A stretch of DNA of 64,000 nucleotides. It comes from an uncultured virus (IMG/VR IMGVR_UViG_3300030116_005269). Taxonomy: Duplodnaviria > Heunggongvirae > Uroviricota > Caudoviricetes. The stretch's first letter is position 1. Every line of letters starts with the position of its first letter. The stretch lies in the IMG/VR virus record IMGVR_UViG_3300030116_005269, positions 1 to 64,000 of that record; one strand, 5' to 3'. The notes under the pieces were generated by a model. That model worked only from the letters and a program-made list of their open reading frames with translations. It was not told the DNA's origin and made no database searches. A program made the translations under genes and the position numbers. Of this stretch, positions 5,868-23,443 are shown piece after piece.

Positions 5868-6662
5868 CTAACTTTCTTTTGCAAAAGAAATGTCCCAAGT
5901 TTGTTTACCTAAGACACCATCTTCTGTCAACCCAAATTCTTTCTGGATTTCCAGAACTTTTCCTTTAGCCTGATTACCAAACCACCCGTCAGCTGTTATG
6001 CCAACTTGCTTTTGCCAATCTTTAAGCTTTTCGTCAAAAATCATTGGCGATTGTTTTTTGTATAATTTATTAGGCCATTTAGGAAAATCTTTAGAAAAAT
6101 CAAATACTTCAGTTTTTTTCTTTTGATCAATAGGACTATAAGAAATTACAGGCTCACTTCCTGATACGGTTTTAAATTCTTGTCCCTCTATGTAGTCAAA
6201 ATCTATATATCTTACTAATACTTTTTCGCCACTAAGTATTGCATCTCTTATAAGCGGGTAAACGGTCTTATACGCATTTACGGAAGATCCCACAAACCCG
6301 TCACTTTGCACAAGATTACTTGTTTGTGAATTTCCTAAAATTAAACAACCGCTGGTCGATTCATCTGTATTCCCCGTGTGCCAAAGTATATACTCGAATC
6401 CCGGGACATTGTTGACATAGATCATGCCACGATGCCAATCAGCACCATACTTGGAGGTATAACGCGAGTGAAAGCCACCTTCGCTACGAAGTGTTAATGT
6501 GTATGTCCCTGCGGGAATACGCGTTTCATGTTTTATTTTTTCGGCTCGAAATTCATCTTCGACGGTGTAGCAAAGAAACTTGCGTTTGTTGTCGGTGACA
6601 TCAAATAAAATACCACTTGTGGAATCTTCTTGTGAGCTGATTCTTAGGACTTCTAATTTCAT
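5868..6662 (-). CDS. putative endolysin (DUF5675-like catalytic domain plus peptidoglycan-binding domain)
   Basis: TRIPAGTY, ILWHTGNT..STSGCLILG; C-terminal ADGWFG...Q...GLTEDGVLG..TW. Confidence 0.75.
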   Translation of the reverse strand: MKLEVLRISSQEDSTSGILFDVTDNKRKFLCYTVEDEFRAEKIKHETRIPAGTYTLTLRSEGGFHSRYTSKYGADWHRGMIYVNNVPGFEYILWHTGNTDESTSGCLILGNSQTSNLVQSDGFVGSSVNAYKTVYPLIRDAILSGEKVLVRYIDFDYIEGQEFKTVSGSEPVISYSPIDQKKKTEVFDFSKDFPKWPNKLYKKQSPMIFDEKLKDWQKQVGITADGWFGNQAKGKVLEIQKEFGLTEDGVLGKQTWDISFAKES

Positions 6663-8630: not shown

Positions 8631-8894
8631 CTATGGTACTATAAAAATACATTCTCCCGGGCATTCCTCTGCTGCTTCGGTCACTAAATCCTCTTGACCT
8701 TTAGGTACTCGTGCTAACCCCTCTGCGCCCTGATCGTTGTTGTGTATTTCGCTAAAAATTTTTAATTCACCAAAATTACCAACTACTTCTTGAACATAAG
8801 CTAAACCGTCATTTTGCATAACAAAAACATCAGGTGCTATTTCAGCGCAAAGTCCGTCACCTGTGCAAAGATCTTGATCTATCCATACTTTCAT
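8631..8894 (-). CDS. single-cluster ferredoxin (actinobacterial type)
   Basis: IDQDLCTGDGLC..IAPDVF ... AAEECPGECI (CxxDxxC...CP). Confidence 0.9.
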   Translation of the reverse strand: MKVWIDQDLCTGDGLCAEIAPDVFVMQNDGLAYVQEVVGNFGELKIFSEIHNNDQGAEGLARVPKGQEDLVTEAAEECPGECIFIVP

Positions 8895-9637
8895 TGAAAC
8901 CTATTCTTGTTAATCTGTCTGTACCCACCTGTCATTTTACTTCTTAATTTAAAACTTTCGTCCCTTATAGCGTGATCGTGTTTTTCATCCCACTTACTAA
9001 CTACAAGATTCTTTTTTTCTCTTTTAAAAGGTATTACATGTAAAAACGGCATACCTCTTTTAATTAATCTTTCACCCTCACTATGCCATACGCTAGGAAA
9101 ATTTACTTGATGGAAAGTGTCTGTTTCTACAACACCCGGAAACAAAGTAAAATCTTTATTAGGGTGTAGTTGCGGTTGTAAAAATAGTGTTGACCAACCC
9201 GGTGGTGTCCAAAAAAACCACGGGCTAGTAAACTTTACAGCTCTACGATAATCATTTCTTTCAAAAGGATATGTGCTAAATTGTTGCTCGTCATGAAACT
9301 CTAAAGTACTTCCTATGCCATTGTCGTCACTAAAGTTAGTTTCAAAATGGAAAGTTTCACCTACTCTTTGTATTAACATATCACACCAAAAAGGAATAAT
9401 ATAACCTTCTGTGAAGTAATCAACAACAGCAGGACACTTCTTTATTGTATGCAAATTCAAATCTTTTATAAGAGAACTCATAATAGGAAATGGTTTGTGA
9501 TTGTCTTGTTGAAGATCTAAAGGTAGTTTTTTAAACCACTCCGGTATCATTTGACTTGCAGGTACAGGTGGTGCTATGTCGGGTAATGCAGGTATAATAC
9601 TTGCAAACTCTATATTATTTTTTTTTACCCACCTCAT
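8891..9637 (-). CDS. DUF6065-like / dUTPase-fold-like protein (paralog 1)
   Basis: KKCPA..GYIIP.W, KFTSPW..TPPGWS, PGVVETD, RGMP..HVIPFKR. Confidence 0.6.
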   Translation of the reverse strand: MRWVKKNNIEFASIIPALPDIAPPVPASQMIPEWFKKLPLDLQQDNHKPFPIMSSLIKDLNLHTIKKCPAVVDYFTEGYIIPFWCDMLIQRVGETFHFETNFSDDNGIGSTLEFHDEQQFSTYPFERNDYRRAVKFTSPWFFWTPPGWSTLFLQPQLHPNKDFTLFPGVVETDTFHQVNFPSVWHSEGERLIKRGMPFLHVIPFKREKKNLVVSKWDEKHDHAIRDESFKLRSKMTGGYRQINKNRFQ

Positions 9638-10140: not shown

Positions 10141-10949
10141 AATTTCTGTTTCTTTGGTACTAGTCTTCTTGGTCTTCTACTCAAAGCTTCGGGATATAAT
10201 TGATTAGTATCTCTACGATTAACTGAGGATTGACTAATCAAATTCCATTGTTTACTAAACTCCTCGTTCCACGGTACATATTCTAGTTTTACCGGTTTAG
10301 AGAATAATAAATTAAACATAATTACATCGTGATTTAATAAACACTCTTCACGATCAAGATCAACCCACTCAAAAGCCCAAGATAAACCTCTAGACCAAGA
10401 GTGTATAGGCATAAATCCGGGTATTGTACTAATAGGTAAATCTTTACCCACATTTCTATCACTAGGTAGTACATCCATCCATACTTCCGGATCGTCACAA
10501 AATAACATAACCGGCATAGATATTTGCATAGTAGGTACTCCCGGTCTAGCCCAACCTTCTTTTTCTTCAACAATAAGCTGATTAAAAGGTCCGTGGTGTT
10601 TTACATTACCGTAAAAATGTGCGTTAAAATCAAAACCACCGTATCTATCTACATCGTCAGCCAATTCATTTTTTCTCATTTTGATTTTTACATAACTATA
10701 TGGAAAGTTAACTTCATATAATCTATTTCTCATAAATTGTGTAGATACACAACCATTAGGGGCTTTTACAAACTTTTTAGGTAGTTCATAATTAACTGAG
10801 GGTAAAGCATTACTTTCCTCATTTTCTAATTGACCCCATTGTAAATTAGGTACGGGTACTGTGTATGCAACCCTAGGTGCGCTTCTGCTTATATCTTTCA
10901 TAGGCTTTGACCATATATCAGTAATTCTAGGTATTGGACATTTACTCAT
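10119..10949 (-). CDS. hypothetical protein, distantly similar to the DUF6065-like paralogs
   Basis: IPGFMPIHSWSR.LSWAFEW segment; cluster context. Confidence 0.5.
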   Translation of the reverse strand: MSKCPIPRITDIWSKPMKDISRSAPRVAYTVPVPNLQWGQLENEESNALPSVNYELPKKFVKAPNGCVSTQFMRNRLYEVNFPYSYVKIKMRKNELADDVDRYGGFDFNAHFYGNVKHHGPFNQLIVEEKEGWARPGVPTMQISMPVMLFCDDPEVWMDVLPSDRNVGKDLPISTIPGFMPIHSWSRGLSWAFEWVDLDREECLLNHDVIMFNLLFSKPVKLEYVPWNEEFSKQWNLISQSSVNRRDTNQLYPEALSRRPRRLVPKKQKLWKEKKY

Positions 10950-11760
10950 CTATAACCCCCTCTTCTTTCCATATCTTTTTATTTTGTTGCGTAAGCCAAC
11001 GGTAAAAACCGTTTTGTCTTGTTCTTTCCGCAGACCTGCTTTTTGAGTAATAAAGTTTGTCTAAATCATCCATATCTCTACTTTCGTAGTCTTTTAAATC
11101 AAAACCACTTCTCTTGTAGGGTATTACTTGTATTAGAGGCGTACCCTGTCTAAATGTTTTTTCACCAACTCCGTGATATATAAAAGGTATATTCATTTGA
11201 TGATAAGAGTCAGTTTCTACAAGACTAGGCATAATTTCTATTTCCCAAATACGATGATACCACGGCTGAGTTATGATAACTGACCAACCCGGTGGTGTCA
11301 CTATATCCCACGGATTTGTAAATTTTAATGCTGTGTTAAAACTTGTAGGTTGAAAAGGCATATTACCTATGGACGCGGGATCGTGATATGTAATAGTTTC
11401 ATTGTAAGCGTGCTTGTTGTACCAATTAAATCCTGTTTGCTTATTATGACTAATTTTAAGATCAAGCCATAAAGGTATAATATATCCCGCCGTCATCATA
11501 TCTTTTACAGTAGGACATTTTTTTAAAGAATTATCTTTGTAAGGAACTGTATTCCAACTATCGTCGTCTTCTCTTAACTCTGTCCACTCTCTTTGTAAAT
11601 GTTTGTACCAAGCAGGTATAAACTCTTTAGCAGGACGAGGTGGAGCTAGATCAACATATTCAGGATCACCTGTAAGGAATAGGATTTTATCGTCGCCAAC
11701 TTTATGTTTTTTGACTTCTAAAAATCTACTATATTCTTTTCGTTCCCACCATTTAGCCAT
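10942..11760 (-). CDS. DUF6065-like / dUTPase-fold-like protein (paralog 2)
   Basis: KKCPT..GYIIPLW, KFTNPW..TPPGWS, VETDSY, GTPLIQVIPYKR. Confidence 0.6.
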   Translation of the reverse strand: MAKWWERKEYSRFLEVKKHKVGDDKILFLTGDPEYVDLAPPRPAKEFIPAWYKHLQREWTELREDDDSWNTVPYKDNSLKKCPTVKDMMTAGYIIPLWLDLKISHNKQTGFNWYNKHAYNETITYHDPASIGNMPFQPTSFNTALKFTNPWDIVTPPGWSVIITQPWYHRIWEIEIMPSLVETDSYHQMNIPFIYHGVGEKTFRQGTPLIQVIPYKRSGFDLKDYESRDMDDLDKLYYSKSRSAERTRQNGFYRWLTQQNKKIWKEEGVIDE

Positions 11761-12473
11761 TATTCCATCAACACCATTGCTTGTTCTACTATTTTTAAAT
11801 TGTCGTCTGGAAAATCACCTGTATATTGGTTTCTTAAAGATATAGCATTTGTATCTTTATCCCAATGGATTATTTTATAAGTTGTAAAAGGTTGTGCTTT
11901 CAAATCGTCAATTTTGTCGTCTATATTATCCATAAGATCGGGTGTCCAACTAATAATAACTTTCATATCGGGATTGTCTGCAATAGTATCTACACAACCG
12001 TCAAGAACATCTAGTTCGCTACCATTTGTAGTTATGACTAACAGATCAAGATCTGTTAAATCTAAGCTATCTACTGTAATAACCTCAACTGCTTGTTCAC
12101 CCTCACCAAAATCAACATCTAGTTTTGCACCAGATTTGTTATTGTCAAAGTAGTACATTGTACCGCTACGACTTGTGCTTGCACAAGCTTTGTTTATATT
12201 TGTAGCGCTAGAACAATTTGTTTCTAAATCTGCAAATCTTGAAGTTATTGGCTCAACATTTATTACTTCTTTACCATTTGAAGTAAGCACTTTACTTGCT
12301 ACTCCTACTCCTGCACCAACAAATAATGCTTTGTCAATATTTGTAATGTTTTCATTTACATAAAATTCTAAAGAAGGATCAAGTGTAAGCCTGTTGTTCA
12401 TTAATAGTTGTTCAGCCCTATCACTTGCGTCGTATTCTATTGATTCCCCCACACTTAAATCTATTTCTACCAT
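11760..12473 (-). CDS. FkbM-like methyltransferase (divergent)
   Basis: FVGAGVG, VEP, VITVDSL, DLLVITTNGSELDVLDG. Confidence 0.65.
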   Translation of the reverse strand: MVEIDLSVGESIEYDASDRAEQLLMNNRLTLDPSLEFYVNENITNIDKALFVGAGVGVASKVLTSNGKEVINVEPITSRFADLETNCSSATNINKACASTSRSGTMYYFDNNKSGAKLDVDFGEGEQAVEVITVDSLDLTDLDLLVITTNGSELDVLDGCVDTIADNPDMKVIISWTPDLMDNIDDKIDDLKAQPFTTYKIIHWDKDTNAISLRNQYTGDFPDDNLKIVEQAMVLME

Positions 12474-13034
12474 TTAGTACCAATCTTTCTTAATTTCTGT
12501 ATAGTGACGACCGGACGGAAATACCGGCTCACCACCACTAAATTCACCTAAAACAAAGTGGTAGTTGTCTGGTCGTGCATAATTAAAGTATAGCGCAACA
12601 GTCACTCCTCCCGGATTTTGTAATCGACCGTGATCTGTTTGTTGTCCTTCATAAGCTAAAGCCTCTTCGTCTGCTAATACTATTTCTCTACCATTTACAT
12701 TCATGTTCCAACCGCTCTCGCTGTAGTAGTTGTACATAATTGTAAACTCAACAGGATCTGTATCTTTATGCACAGGATAGTTTGCATTAGTTTCATACCA
12801 ATTTAAAGTAGCAAAGGTAGGAAGTAAATTGGGAACATCAAAGACTTCTCTTGCTTTGTCAATACTAAATATATGGTACATATCGAGTTCGGGACAAGTC
12901 TTTTTCATCATACCTGTTTCGTGTCTTTCCCAAGTTTGATCGTCATAGTAAGGCGACTCATTGTCTAACCAATGTCGCATTTCTTCTACTTGATTTCCCT
13001 TAAATAAATCTGTGATGATTATTGCATCCATTTT
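12474..13034 (-). CDS. 2OG-Fe(II) oxygenase-like protein
   Basis: HKD...HGR; paralog of 9634-10140. Likely start at MKMDAII. Confidence 0.7.
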   Translation of the reverse strand, partial: KMDAIIITDLFKGNQVEEMRHWLDNESPYYDDQTWERHETGMMKKTCPELDMYHIFSIDKAREVFDVPNLLPTFATLNWYETNANYPVHKDTDPVEFTIMYNYYSESGWNMNVNGREIVLADEEALAYEGQQTDHGRLQNPGGVTVALYFNYARPDNYHFVLGEFSGGEPVFPSGRHYTEIKKDWY

Positions 13035-13708
13035 CATCCTCTTGGTAAATAAAAATCTGGTAATCCATCTGTGTCTATTTGATGACCTAACCATGTGACT
13101 ATTGCATACTTAGTACCACTAATTATAGGCATAGCCCTATGGGAATAAGCGTAATTGCTAGGAAACAAAACTAAAGCAGGTTTATCGGGTTTAACATTTT
13201 CGTCAAAGTGTATGAAATATGTACCGCCACCCTCATACTCAGTAGGATTTAAAAGTATTAGCGCACTTAAATATCTAGGCATGTGTGGTGCATAATCACA
13301 ATGAGCTTTATATTCTTGACCGCCCTGATAACGCAATAAAGTATATCCCTCATCAAACATAATTGGAAACTCATACTTTTTAGTGTATTCATTTACATAC
13401 TCACTTAACTTTTGTGTGAGTAAGTCTTGTAAGTTAGCTATATCTCTAAAATACTTGTCATTACCATTTTTAACGGACTCTCTGTATAGTCTTGATTCTT
13501 TAGGTAAAAAGTAATGTTCAGTAATACCAAAAGTCTTATTTGACCTAATATCTCCGCCTTTGTGTCCTTTACCAACGGACGCATCTTTAAAACCTAATTC
13601 AAATGTTTCGTCTTGATCAATATCTTCACATATTTTTATAATTGTTTTAGCTTGATCTTCTGTAATGAAATCCTCATAGATTTCAACACAACCCATAATT
13701 TTTTTCAC
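13034..13708 (-). CDS. prolyl-4-hydroxylase-like 2OG-Fe(II) oxygenase
   Basis: LLRY..GQEYKAHCD, YEGGGTYF, LFPSN, HRAMPIISGTKYAIVTW. Confidence 0.85.
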   Translation of the reverse strand: MKKIMGCVEIYEDFITEDQAKTIIKICEDIDQDETFELGFKDASVGKGHKGGDIRSNKTFGITEHYFLPKESRLYRESVKNGNDKYFRDIANLQDLLTQKLSEYVNEYTKKYEFPIMFDEGYTLLRYQGGQEYKAHCDYAPHMPRYLSALILLNPTEYEGGGTYFIHFDENVKPDKPALVLFPSNYAYSHRAMPIISGTKYAIVTWLGHQIDTDGLPDFYLPRG

Positions 13709-14421
13709 GAAAACTCCCTCATCTTGATTTGGTCTATTGGATTACCATTATTATAGCTATCCATATCAAAATTACTACTAAGTGAAACTAAAAATGCAGA
13801 CTTACGACCGTTCAACAAAGGCGTTGTTGCATGTGAATAAACAAAAGAACTAGGCATGATTACAACCGATCCGGCAGGTGGTTTGTATGGATCAGCCTCC
13901 GGAAAGTATCTAAATTTCAAACTACCACCCATAAAGTTGTCATTGAGATAAGTTAATATAGTTATTCGACGCATATACGGTGCAATGTAATATTGATTTG
14001 TTTTAGGGTTTCTAACTGAGTGATTGTCACTATGATATGTCATGTGTTTTGGCGGACTATAAGTTATGTATTGGTACTTTTCTAACCAATTAACTTCTTT
14101 TTCTACATCTGGGTACAATTCAAAATATTGTGCTGCTTTGTTTAAAGCGTTTGCTTGTACTTGTTTTAAAAATTGATAATGTGTTTTTTTTGTAAATTGA
14201 GCTTCTGGATCAAATCTTATAGGTCCGTTATCGTTATATAAAGATTTTGCTGCTTCGTCTGTTTTAGTAGATTCTAAAGTTTGTTGGGCTTTCCAATTAT
14301 CTACATCTTCGTCCATAGATTCTATTATGCCGTCTGGTACTTCTAAGCAATTTTCCCAAGCGACAACACCTCTAATAACTTCTTTAGGTGTACCACTTAC
14401 CCATAAATTATTCTTCTTCAT
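13705..14421 (-). CDS. prolyl-4-hydroxylase-like 2OG-Fe(II) oxygenase
   Basis: HSD, YLNDNFMGGSLKF, PSSFVYSH..P...GRK. Confidence 0.85.
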   Translation of the reverse strand: MKKNNLWVSGTPKEVIRGVVAWENCLEVPDGIIESMDEDVDNWKAQQTLESTKTDEAAKSLYNDNGPIRFDPEAQFTKKTHYQFLKQVQANALNKAAQYFELYPDVEKEVNWLEKYQYITYSPPKHMTYHSDNHSVRNPKTNQYYIAPYMRRITILTYLNDNFMGGSLKFRYFPEADPYKPPAGSVVIMPSSFVYSHATTPLLNGRKSAFLVSLSSNFDMDSYNNGNPIDQIKMREFS

Positions 14422-14895: not shown

Positions 14896-15819
14896 TTAGG
14901 CTGTGAGTGTTGCTCGAATATCTAGTTGTGCCTTTAAGTAATCGATTGTTGCACCAAAGCTAACATCTTTTGTAGCTTTATAAGCATCAACATCGGCCAA
15001 GAACGCAGTTTCGTCAAATGCGTCTATATCTTCACCAAGTTTGTAAAGACAGTTAGCAACTGCTTTCTCACAGACTTGTAGGGCATCAGCTTTTTCCGTT
15101 GCTAAGGCATCGGCGCTAATTGATAGATCCATATCTTCTCCTATATTGTAAGTGTTTCCTAGACAGTATAGCATTGAATATTCACGAATATCTTTTATTC
15201 CCGGACTACCCTCGACAGGCCAAACCCAATCGTCAGGTATTTCGACAAAATATGCGTGAGCTTTACTGTAAAATATTTTTATAAACGAATATGACCCCTG
15301 ATCAGTTCCGTCATCTCCGTCATCTGTTGATATTGTATCAAGTTCTTTATCAAAATTGTCTATTGTAGTACAAGTAATATCGGTAGCTAAAACATCTGTA
15401 TAGGTATTATCTGCATAAACATAAGGGCTATCATTTTTTATATAAAAATTTACATTAGGATTTACATTTGTGTCAATATCCCAAACATAACCTACTTCAT
15501 ATTTATATTCGTTTAACAAATCGTCTGTCAATTTAAGTGGTGTATCATATTCACCGTTATAATCTGTTATAAAATCTTTGCGTCTTATATATAAAGAAAA
15601 CCTTTTTGCATTGTTTAACTCAACATCAACATAACCAAGTGTTCCGTCAACTACAAAATTTAATTTTTTTCTTGGACCATAAGGATATACATTATCGATT
15701 AAATCACTAGGAAATAAATTAGGTGCGTCTTGTGGATATAAAGTGCCGGGAAAATAAAATAAATCCCAATTACTATAATCTTGATCTTCTCGTTTGTAAT
15801 AAACTCTAACTGTCGCCAT
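14896..15819 (-). CDS. protein with N-terminal CBM41/pullulanase-associated-like domain
   Basis: VRVYYKREDQDYSNWDLF ... F..DG..GYVDV.L....FSLYIR pattern. Confidence 0.5.
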   Translation of the reverse strand: MATVRVYYKREDQDYSNWDLFYFPGTLYPQDAPNLFPSDLIDNVYPYGPRKKLNFVVDGTLGYVDVELNNAKRFSLYIRRKDFITDYNGEYDTPLKLTDDLLNEYKYEVGYVWDIDTNVNPNVNFYIKNDSPYVYADNTYTDVLATDITCTTIDNFDKELDTISTDDGDDGTDQGSYSFIKIFYSKAHAYFVEIPDDWVWPVEGSPGIKDIREYSMLYCLGNTYNIGEDMDLSISADALATEKADALQVCEKAVANCLYKLGEDIDAFDETAFLADVDAYKATKDVSFGATIDYLKAQLDIRATLTA

Positions 15820-16594: not shown

Positions 16595-17923
16595 TTACGC
16601 TCCCGGATCTGTGTCGCTAGCAGCAATATTGTAAACGGTTAATACAGTTCCGGCACCTGCTGTTCCTGTACCACTCGTACCTGCGGCTGCTGCTAATGTC
16701 AAACCGCTAGGTAAAGGTTTTGTTCCTGAAATTAAAATTACTGTTCCGCCCCCCGCGTTATACCCGTCTGATGCTGTTCCGCCTGCGCCACCTGCACCGC
16801 CGGGGTGATAAACTGTTGGGTTTGTGGTAGAAGGATTTGTACCGTAGTTGGTAGGGTTGCTTCCATAGTTAGTTGGATTTGACCCGTAGTTTGCGCCATA
16901 ATTAGTATTGTTAGACCCATAGTTTGTTGTAGGGTTATTACTTCCATAGTTTGTGTATGGATGTGAGTGGTTATAGTGATAATGATAATATCCGGATTGA
17001 TAGTTATTAATTGTTGGACCGCCGTGCCAATGATAATGTGTGTGAGGATTTGATCCGCTGTAAGAGTATGGGTTTCCGGGTGATGTGTAGGAATAGTTGT
17101 TCCCCGGATAGCTATATCCGTATGAATAATTATTTCCTGAATAAGAATAGTTATTTCCCGGATGTGTATTTGTATTACCCGGAACTGTGTTTCCCGGTGT
17201 ACTAGCGTCTGGTGCAGGAGCGCCTGTTGTTCCATCCGTTCCAGCAGAAGCGTCATCACCGTCGGCTCTAACTGTACCGTCACCTACTATTGTCTTAGCA
17301 ATAACTAAAACAACTCCACCGCCTACCGCACCTGTACCCGCTGTTGCTGCATTACCGGTTGCACCTTTACCACCCGGCGCACCAACTGTTTGATAGTCAC
17401 TCCAATTTGAGTCACCACCGTCTGCACCTGCTGAGGCGTTTGCTGTAATCGATCCGTCACCCCCACCAGATCCACCTCCTATAAACTTATAAGAGCCAGA
17501 CGCAGGATCAAACTTTGACCCCTGTATAGCTACTGTTAAATTAAAAAATTCGTTTTCCCCACTAAAAAATTTGTTTGCGTTATGTGCTGAGTCTGATTGT
17601 GATCCTGATTTACCGCCTAATGTATCAGTTGCTGCTGTACCTTTAGCAAAGCCACCCTTAAGAGTTCCTACAGTAGTTTTGTTTGTAAATCTACCTATTC
17701 TTGAAGTGCTATTTGTAAATGTAAGTGTTCCTTTGACAAAGATACGATAGCCGTTGCTATCTAATGTACAGTTAGCATTTATTGTTAAATTGTTGTAGTA
17801 CATATCTCTTGATAGTGTGGTATTTGAGGTTATTGTGACATTACCATCTTGTCCAAAACCATATACCTCCTCACCACCAAGTCTGTCTAAAAAGACCGGC
17901 TCGGGTATTTCTATGGAAGGCAT
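16595..17923 (-). CDS. Gly-rich virion/tail-associated protein with an N/Y/H-rich repeat insert
   Basis: GGGVVLVIA Gly-rich motifs; NYSY and TNYGSNP repeats. Confidence 0.65.
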   Translation of the reverse strand: MPSIEIPEPVFLDRLGGEEVYGFGQDGNVTITSNTTLSRDMYYNNLTINANCTLDSNGYRIFVKGTLTFTNSTSRIGRFTNKTTVGTLKGGFAKGTAATDTLGGKSGSQSDSAHNANKFFSGENEFFNLTVAIQGSKFDPASGSYKFIGGGSGGGDGSITANASAGADGGDSNWSDYQTVGAPGGKGATGNAATAGTGAVGGGVVLVIAKTIVGDGTVRADGDDASAGTDGTTGAPAPDASTPGNTVPGNTNTHPGNNYSYSGNNYSYGYSYPGNNYSYTSPGNPYSYSGSNPHTHYHWHGGPTINNYQSGYYHYHYNHSHPYTNYGSNNPTTNYGSNNTNYGANYGSNPTNYGSNPTNYGTNPSTTNPTVYHPGGAGGAGGTASDGYNAGGGTVILISGTKPLPSGLTLAAAAGTSGTGTAGAGTVLTVYNIAASDTDPGA

Positions 17924-22342: not shown

Positions 22343-23443
22343 CTAACTAAAAGTTATTGTTCCTGTTCCTGCTGTAAATGTAGTTATTTTTGTATTTCCT
22401 GATCCATTTGATGTACTAGCAGTCAAACCTGCACTTGCAGTTATAGTAAAGTTATCAGGATAACGAAGTATTACAACACCGCTACCACCTGAGCCTGATG
22501 TCGCTCCACTATGGTAAGTACCTGTTCCCCCACCGCCCCCACCGGTATTAGCTGTACCTGAAGTTGCTGAGAAATTTTCATTTTGTCCACCGGCGTTTCC
22601 TGCACCGTTGCCCCCACCGTCTTGACCTAAACCCCGCCAAGAAAGAGTAGCACCTGTTGTACCTTTATAGATACCTCCACCACCGCCTCCTGCTCTTTCT
22701 ACACTAGCGTCGGTAATAGTTGAGGCTACACCGTCCCCACCATTACCTGCTTTTTGATTTACACCATTCACACCTACTGATCCTGCTCCTCCGCCTCCGC
22801 CGGCAAAGTGATCGCTAACATTTGATCCTGATCCACCTGCGTAGCCCTGATTAGCTGTTCCTGCACCGCCTGCCGCTCCATGCGTAGCTCCGCCCCCGCC
22901 TGAGCCTCCTGCTGTCCCGACATGACCGCTCCATTGTCCGCCAGATCCTCCTCCAATAGAAGTTATTGTATGAAATACTGAATCGCTACCCTCATTACCG
23001 TCACTACCAAATTCCGAAGATCCTCCACCTGCGACACCTGCGCCACCTGCACCAACTGTCACCGTATAAGATGTTCCCGGCACTAAAGATAATTGTGATT
23101 CCGATGATCCTCCGCCACCTGACGCTTCATTATTGTAAGTTGCACGATAGCCTCCGGCACCTCCACCTCCGCCGTGTTGGTGTCCGCCCGCTCCACCACC
23201 TGCTATTACTAAGTAATCGCAAGCAATACTAAAAGTGCTACTTGACATAGCGTTCCAAGATGACCCGTTATATAGTTTTATAGTTCCTAGATCAGAGTCA
23301 TATACTGCGGCACCTGCACTCATACCTGATAGAGCGTTAATCTGCGAGGTTGTAAGAGATTTTAAATTTAGGTTGTGTCCAATATTTACACCACCATTTG
23401 AAGTATTTTCCTCTATATTATCTACTTTTATTTTGCTAGCCAT
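22343..23443 (-). CDS. glycine-rich tail protein
   Basis: YLVIAGGGAGG, YTVTVGAGG, GTANTGGGGGG, GGSGVVILRY. Confidence 0.75.
   Translation of the reverse strand: MASKIKVDNIEENTSNGGVNIGHNLNLKSLTTSQINALSGMSAGAAVYDSDLGTIKLYNGSSWNAMSSSTFSIACDYLVIAGGGAGGHQHGGGGGAGGYRATYNNEASGGGGSSESQLSLVPGTSYTVTVGAGGAGVAGGGSSEFGSDGNEGSDSVFHTITSIGGGSGGQWSGHVGTAGGSGGGGATHGAAGGAGTANQGYAGGSGSNVSDHFAGGGGGAGSVGVNGVNQKAGNGGDGVASTITDASVERAGGGGGGIYKGTTGATLSWRGLGQDGGGNGAGNAGGQNENFSATSGTANTGGGGGGTGTYHSGATSGSGGSGVVILRYPDNFTITASAGLTASTSNGSGNTKITTFTAGTGTITFS

Follow-up and report, generated by a model that had tools for sequence, protein, structure and literature searches.

An insert of 134 residues in a protein from the tail module of an uncultured marine phage is, with a probability that we put at about 0.62, an out-and-back projection whose two arms are paired in register and whose tip is rich in histidine. 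The protein, P0001, is encoded in the 64,000-nucleotide stretch of IMG/VR record IMGVR_UViG_3300030116_005269 that was analysed here (the window), and the insert comprises its residues 241–374 (window positions 16802..17203). Two arms of 53 residues flank a 28-residue centre (HTHYHWH-GGPTINNYQSGY-YHYHYNHSH). The lengths of the repeat units in one arm mirror those in the other, length changes are compensated between the arms in homologues, the words of the two arms are complementary, the histidines are invariant, and the gene lies in a tail module. From these observations we infer a beta-ribbon fold, a metal clasp at the tip and a role as receptor probe.

The mirror was recovered by a mechanical parse. 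When the first arm was cut after each 'GN' and the second after each [ST]N[NP], the unit lengths were 5,5,7,7,11,9,9 and 9,9,11,7,7,5,5, respectively. These two rules reproduced exactly the coordinates and mirrored unit lengths that an earlier sequence-only reading of this DNA had claimed, and the mirrored-arm observation in P0001 is confirmed. All unit lengths in the arms are odd, and the mirror is one of the 630 distinct orders that are possible for this multiset of lengths. The insert is composed of asparagine (21%), tyrosine (18%), serine, threonine and glycine (13% each), proline (11%) and histidine (7.5%), with D, E, K, R, C, F, L and M absent. The same reading had described the insert as missing from the adjacent paralog, P0002, and BLASTP bore this out: P0002 matched P0001 with 52% identity across residues 18–91 and lacked the insert.

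P0001 matched no Pfam family (E 0.01) and no PHROG family. Metagenomic homologues numbered 218 in 90% clusters, and of the 1021 representatives at E ≤0.001 most aligned to the N-terminal ~100 residues only. Inserts of homologues were parsed with fixed anchors, namely RAD[GA][DK] with a leader of 17 residues, the HxH that comes first and the one that comes last, and GGxGG. Exactly equal arms were present in 40 of the 45 distinct inserts of database proteins, and a scan of 76 IMG/VR loci yielded 27 with a parsable insert, every one of them equal-armed (27/27). In the pooled set the arms were equal in 61 of 66 distinct inserts, and their length took 14 values between 42 and 58 residues. Mirrored unit lengths recurred in other architectures, including those of P0009 (5,5,7,15,7,7,9), P0010 (5,5,7,11,15,9) and P0011 (5,3,9,7,15,7,7). 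Fitch parsimony required at least 29 changes of arm length among the 60 equal-arm taxa, each matched in the opposite arm; the base-domain tree was a quick FastTree of 65 sequences with a midpoint root, and recombination could shift the count, though not its order of magnitude. Both arms diverged faster than the base and did so in parallel, such that a base identity of 0.95 was accompanied by arm identities of 0.65/0.69 and a base identity of 0.70 by arm identities of 0.28/0.24. The compensating indels in both arms on which the sequence-only reading had staked its proposal were thus found, and its description of the insert as extensible holds in an evolutionary sense.

Four of the five inserts with unequal arms seem to have an ordinary explanation. 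P0005, P0049 and P0008 each derive from a single short contig and have lost whole units relative to the near-identical, equal-armed P0260, P0261 and P0004, which looks like repeat collapse in assembly. P0018 became equal-armed when its 18-residue leader was counted, an artefact of the anchor.

An origin of the mirror in chance, in an assembly artefact or in a DNA-level palindrome would draw on the ease with which tandem repeats collapse in short-read assemblies and on the three unequal-armed sequences that look collapsed, and we consider it barely credible. The number of DNA inverted repeats in 16700–17300 was 0, the direct DNA repeats of the insert region are only 68–76% alike, and contigs of other public marine runs (X11 record 9 and X10 record 1, from other studies and years) span the whole insert with 0 gaps, as does X7 record 25, which may itself be the source. 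Together with the equality of the arms in 61 of 66 independent assemblies at 14 lengths, these results rule out a DNA palindrome or mis-assembly. Because there is no inverted repeat, and because the direct repeats are alike only to the extent given, the mirror is a property of the protein and not of the DNA. The same region holds an open reading frame (ORF) of 181 residues (16738–17283, minus), which overlaps the insert on the same strand but in a different frame. Wrong-frame fragments of this ORF occur in public protein sets (P0159 and P0208), and it seems to result from the repeat composition and not to be a gene.

More distant relatives (P0060–P0077 and P0126; loci L022 and L039), with 35–44% base identity, carry a different insert of ~200 residues at the same site. 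This insert is rich in Phe, Tyr, Asn and Pro around a conserved G-P-x-x-V-R motif, and it is flanked on both sides by 10–11 uninterrupted G-x-y triplets. Its arm lengths were correlated (r = 0.98 for 13 sequences, with crude anchors); since they co-vary, the fold-back projection appears to be a family trait that extends beyond the set of words found in P0001.

The arms are built from two types of word, the YSY type (NYSYPGN, with +4 extensions YSYG) and the NYG type (TNYGSNP, with +4 extensions NYGA). The basic word is seven residues long, with +2 and +4 increments, and both types occurred in both arms in 29 of 60 sequences. At mirrored positions we counted 331 YSY:NYG residue pairs versus 2 pairs of the same type; when arm 2 was swapped among sequences of equal length (500 shuffles), the same-type oppositions averaged 86 and never fell below 35. 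Tyrosine stood opposite tyrosine in none of the 1964 pairs at the end-to-end register. Mutual information between the arms was 0.21–0.87 bits in the antiparallel direction versus 0.11–0.18 bits in the parallel one, and parallel in-register pairing was rejected because it gave no mutual-information signal. Pair scores transferred across subfamilies chose shift 0 of 13 in 479 of 628 nine-residue windows (76%), and the reciprocal test did so in 874 of 1164 (75%). The compensated lengths, the antiparallel mutual information and the 331 versus 2 complementarity agree with the claim of the sequence-only reading that two differently worded arms pair antiparallel and in matched register. Judged from the sequences, an antiparallel, register-matched fold-back is strongly supported. 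In the way they co-vary, the arms do in a protein what compensatory change does in an RNA stem.

Structural modelling provided thin evidence on the fold, with some confidence only at the foot of the insert. An AlphaFold2 (AF2) monomer prediction from 47 sequences gave the base a predicted local distance difference test score (pLDDT) of ~85–96. The first ~12 residues of each arm formed short paired ladders in both this run and a second run on a 201-residue construct, with pLDDT 55–83. The paired segments were E240-242/E371-373 in the first run and 42-44/173-175, 48-49/168-169 and 53/164 in the construct run. The ladders of both runs share one register (i + j = 613 in P0001 numbering), which differs from the end-to-end register by two residues. 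A series of short ladders with kinks between them, at P-G-N and S-N-P, would fit better than a smooth ribbon. The base resembled beta-helices only weakly when compared by VIA-align, with Z 7.8 to 2iou_H (pertactin complex), Z 7.5 to IcsA (3ml3) and Z 7.5 to bactofilin (6ria; root-mean-square deviation 2.2 over 82), and many other beta-helices scored Z 5–7; all of these weak likenesses lie below the VIA-align caution line of Z 8. Foldseek against the PDB returned nothing at E ≤0.001. The ESM Atlas contains P0001 but no model of it; there the whole protein matched only unnamed viral clusters, and the insert alone gave no usable match.

The centre of the insert was conserved, in contrast to the arms. 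All eight histidines of its two blocks (H294, H296, H298, H300, H314, H316, H319 and H321), which make up four HxH pairs per chain, were invariant in 59 aligned sequences, as were N306 and H373, and N307 and G311 were at least 90% conserved. As with the word types of the arms, the blocks changed sides as a pair: they were ordered 7+8 in 40 and 8+7 in 26 of the 66 sequences, never 7+7 or 8+8, and centres of 36 residues had three residues added on each side of the loop. Because the arms vary and the tip does not, the tip is better explained by a conserved ligand or by a metal clasp with a structural role than by a hypervariable receptor site. By analogy with fibres described elsewhere, the histidine blocks probably bind metal: in the T4 gp37 needle the iron atoms are held by HxH histidines, which the needle needs for its function, according to the accessible part of PMC6957217, and HxH motifs are discussed as iron sites in marine phage fibres, with the iron 'Trojan horse' idea, in the accessible part of PMC11705849.

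We propose that the projection is inserted between two rungs of a small, Gly-rich, beta-solenoid-like base. The chain would exit the base, extend for 53 residues, cross the conserved tip and come back over another 53. At the tip, two blocks of four histidines each, the first of them alternating, would flank a P-x-P-P-I-N-N loop, and these blocks would probably bind metal and clasp the distal end. The arms would lie antiparallel and in register from end to end, held by the two complementary kinds of word, such that tyrosines of one arm are placed opposite Gly, Asn or Ser of the other. They would most likely form a two-stranded beta ribbon composed of short ladders broken by kinks at P-G-N and S-N-P, and the projection would measure roughly 15–20 nm if extended. 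Its length is tuned in evolution by gain or loss of matching pieces in both arms, and word types are exchanged between the arms with complementarity kept. The projection probably acts as a thin host-surface probe or as a spacer of the tail tip.

Several observations weigh against this proposal. The long beta-hairpin predicted by the sequence-only reading stood in the AF2 monomer only as the short ladders at the arm bases; over most of the insert (residues 251–363; 47 sequences) the pLDDT was 29–47, and in the construct run (59 sequences) it was below 50 for residues 59–99 and 122–159. An uninterrupted two-stranded ribbon is impossible because the prolines of the first arm sit on both parities. 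The mutual information peaked at shifts −3 and −1, away from 0, and since these peaks lie off 0 and the AF2 ladders are offset by 2, the pairing of individual residues may be offset from the end-to-end register. Merely clamping both ends would also yield arms of equal length. Neither the insert (E ≤10) nor the family profile (E ≤1) matched any PDB sequence, and thus no solved relative was found. P0021, with arms of 21/69, has no explanation, and its cluster mate P0262 has arms of 52/54, from which small real mismatches may exist. Finally, a conserved tip on variable arms is the reverse of the usual pattern in tips that bind receptors.

Phage fibres are usually trimers, and P0001 might likewise form a gp37-like needle in which three out-and-back chains build a six-stranded bundle with axial octahedral HxH metal sites, at most four per trimer. 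The matching of the arms would then reflect packing between chains as well as within them. The four HxH pairs that are invariant in each chain and the 10–11 uninterrupted G-x-y triplets that flank the insert of the distant homologues are consistent with this arrangement. There is also the precedent of gp37, for which the accessible part of PMC6957217 describes histidines of three chains binding seven irons along an out-and-back needle. Also on this side, though weakly, the best matches in BFVD were collagen-like viral proteins, with template modelling scores of only 0.2–0.34. P0001 itself has only three consecutive G-x-y triplets (GTDGTTGAP) before the insert, short of the long run that a collagen triple helix calls for. 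Searches of Pfam, PHROG and PDB sequences revealed no relation of P0001 to the C-terminal regions of gp37 or gp12 or to any fibre family, and AF2 modelled the base confidently as a single-chain, solenoid-like domain. Moreover, the G-x-y runs can equally be read as polyglycine-II strands of a monomeric Gly-rich domain, as described for Pam3 gp24 in the accessible part of PMC9608196, and the Tyr-rich arms would presumably be bulky for a six-stranded core. On balance we regard the trimer as possible, yet rather unlikely.

The gp37 needle is the closest described system to the P0001 insert. Domains D10–D11 of gp37, as presented in the accessible part of PMC6957217, are likewise thin and elongated, run out to a tip and back, belong to a tail-fibre module and carry His-x-His motifs; for the P0001 insert the out-and-back topology would follow from the compensated lengths and the antiparallel complementarity. 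The differences are considerable. Whereas gp37 is a proven trimer without low-complexity repeats, the arms of P0001 consist of two complementary repeat words and vary by paired indels; the histidines of P0001 occur in two tip blocks, whereas those of gp37 are placed along the shaft; and the base is solenoid-like in contrast to the collar of gp37.

The Gly-rich sequence around the insert, and the match of a neighbouring gene (22343–23443) to Pfam Gly_rich_2, speak for another arrangement, in which the arms are left-handed extended helices packed as in S16 gp38 and Pam3 gp24, in a polyglycine-II or collagen-like bundle. Antiparallel polyglycine-II strands would also require matched lengths, as the accessible part of PMC9608196 indicates. 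Nevertheless, the arms contain only about one Gly per seven residues (~13% Gly), their period is 7 with +2/+4 increments and not 3, P0001 has no Pfam Gly_rich match, and the alternating Y-x-Y would suit beta strands. We therefore give such a bundle very little credence. The two known proteins resemble P0001 as Gly-rich tail-tip proteins with antiparallel extended strands and host-facing distal ends (from the same part of PMC9608196), and they differ in being compact lattices of Gly-rich motifs, in contrast to the Tyr/Asn/Pro-rich arms of P0001. A relation between P0001 and the neighbouring Gly_rich_2 protein was considered and discarded, as BLASTP showed nothing.

The insert could also be a disordered Tyr/Asn/Pro-rich tether, or a substrate of neighbouring hydroxylases and a glycosyltransferase, with the equal length of the arms arising from a clamped base and tip. 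Low pLDDT across most of the insert agrees with disorder, as does a low-complexity composition with no charged or aliphatic residues. The substrate version gains from two 2-oxoglutarate (2OG) oxygenases resembling prolyl 4-hydroxylases (P4H), conserved just downstream, and from X-Pro-Gly in the arms. A disordered loop, however, would need neither the position-by-position complementarity (331 versus 2) and the conserved local register nor the unit-by-unit mirrored indels of P0009, P0010 and P0011, and we judge this explanation improbable. Enzymatic modification and arm pairing are compatible and not exclusive.

X-Pro-Gly is the consensus of collagen P4H, and it recurs in the arms of P0001. The oxygenase pair was kept in 9 of the 9 related loci that carry this type of insert and enough downstream DNA, one further locus being truncated; plain shared ancestry may explain its conservation. 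Because the arms are full of X-Pro-Gly and P4H-like genes are adjacent, the projection may be hydroxylated and perhaps glycosylated, and P0001 is the obvious candidate substrate of these hydroxylase genes. A more far-reaching form of the fold-back proposal would combine these elements. The arms would constitute a protein 'pairing code', in which two low-complexity alphabets zip up an antiparallel ribbon as bases do in an RNA stem, units change only as matched pairs, a histidine-metal clasp closes the end, and the prolines of X-Pro-Gly are hydroxylated, and perhaps glycosylated, by P4H-like enzymes of the phage. We put this forward tentatively, as something that may well prove too much; if true, the projection would be a nanofibre that is modular, programmable in length and decorated chemically, a type that has not been described in any protein.

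Other systems offer partial likenesses. In the kinked, aromatic-rich segments of low complexity called LARKS, short stretches of Tyr, Gly, Ser and Asn, SYSGYS for instance, are similar to the NYSYGYSY words and pair as kinked beta structures; LARKS stack between molecules and in parallel, whereas the signal in P0001 is intramolecular or within a fibre, antiparallel and length-matched. The zinc hook of Rad50, a DNA-repair ATPase, has antiparallel, alpha-helical coiled-coil arms and a CxxC zinc site shared by two molecules. Rad50 serves as a working analogy only, for folded-back arms of matched length with a metal motif at the apex, and has no relation to P0001 in sequence or fold. The 'Tentaclins' were set aside as unrelated C-type-lectin proteins, as they appear in the accessible part of PMC10743442. 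Our literature search, which covered sources other than subscription journals and supplements, found no description of such arms or of the motif words of the insert.

Thin fibres set the host range of phages, and only in a few cultured phages is the architecture of these fibres known. The family of P0001 has hundreds of metagenomic members and no annotation, and its arms point to a way of making phage fibres of adjustable length that has not been described. The evolutionary evidence for a fold-back fibre that can be tuned unit by unit is unusually clean and compares with what compensatory changes provide for RNA helices. Should the fold be confirmed, there would be a simple rule by which long two-stranded beta ribbons could be designed, and structure predictors, which fail on this insert, would gain a test case. 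The projection would also be a concrete candidate where marine phages are supposed to have fibres that bear metal, in line with the 'Trojan horse' idea for iron in the accessible part of PMC11705849.

The window belongs to a virus record of 85,160 bp that is rated complete by CheckV. Genes for a tape measure, a major capsid protein and a portal are present in the window together with fibre-like genes, and all of them lie on one strand; the public sequencing runs that contain the stretch are marine metagenomes; given the tape-measure gene, the host of the P0001 gene is a siphovirus-like uncultured marine phage. In the phage collection that was searched, the major capsid protein had no relative above ~31% identity, and thus no close cultured relative, and neither P0001 nor P0002 had a match. 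In the tail module the P0001 gene comes behind the genes for the tape measure and fibres, flanked by small conserved tail-module genes on one side and by the paralog on the other, and this adjoining order of gene and paralog was kept in 12 of 12 related loci examined. The features of the two genes are listed in Table 1.

Table 1. Features of the P0001 gene and its paralog in the window.
Feature	Position	Strand	Description and basis
P0001 gene, 442 residues	16595..17923	minus	ORF and translation; Gly-rich beta-solenoid-like base carrying the insert
Outgoing arm, residues 241–293 (53 residues)	17045..17203	minus	STPGN/TVPGN/TNTHPGN/NYSYSGN/NYSYGYSYPGN/NYSYTSPGN/PYSYSGSNP; split after 'GN'
His block 1, residues 294–300	17024..17044	minus	HTHYHWH (HxHxHxH); invariant histidines in alignment
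Distal loop, residues 301–313	16985..17023	minus	GGPTINNYQSGYY; conserved core P-x-P-P-I-N-N-[YF]-x-x-G in relatives
His block 2, residues 314–321	16961..16984	minus	HYHYNHSH (HxHxxHxH); invariant histidines in alignment
Returning arm, residues 322–374 (53 residues)	16802..16960	minus	PYTNYGSNN/PTTNYGSNN/TNYGANYGSNP/TNYGSNP/TNYGTNP/STTNP/TVYHP; split after [ST]N[NP]
Paralog P0002, 230 residues	15934..16626	minus	TTG start overlapping the end of the P0001 gene; BLASTP

The N-terminal module of P0001 (residues 12–110; window 17594–17890) is widespread and is present in much larger proteins. One of these, P0134 (1764 residues), has a type IV pilin-like N-methylation motif. No insert was found in longer proteins (775–2210 residues), which is weak evidence by the search tool's own statement. 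A subfamily of 540–554 residues (P0017, P0019, P0020, P0036, P0044 and others) has an extra domain of ~105 residues after base residue ~105. Its motifs (YTF...H..KFS...LYYYC..H...GG.I.V) resemble a cupredoxin copper site, and the Cys and His are lost in some members; the four members scanned (P0020, P0036, P0044 and P0048) gave no Pfam match.

The two oxygenases downstream of the P0001–P0002 pair (13034–14421) are 2OG-Fe(II) enzymes of PF13640, and the nearest solved relatives of one of them are bacterial prolyl 4-hydroxylases (3itq, 5iax and 5hv0; E 9e-6). The genes farther downstream (11760–12473, 8891–9637, 10942–11760 and 431–1255) comprise one for an FkbM methyltransferase, two with weak matches to DUF6065 and one for a PF11397 'GlcNAc' (N-acetylglucosamine) glycosyltransferase; PF11397 is presumably the Skp1 hydroxyproline GlcNAc-transferase family. 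A protein of 307 residues that follows the paralog (14896–15819) matched the pullulanase-associated domain (PUD) below threshold, with 24.7 bits versus a cut-off of 25. It was syntenic in 9 of 9 related loci with this type of insert and enough downstream DNA, and it is possibly a carbohydrate-binding tail protein. A DUF5675 domain together with a PG_binding_1 peptidoglycan-binding domain was detected at 5868–6662, and the product of this gene is likely an endolysin.

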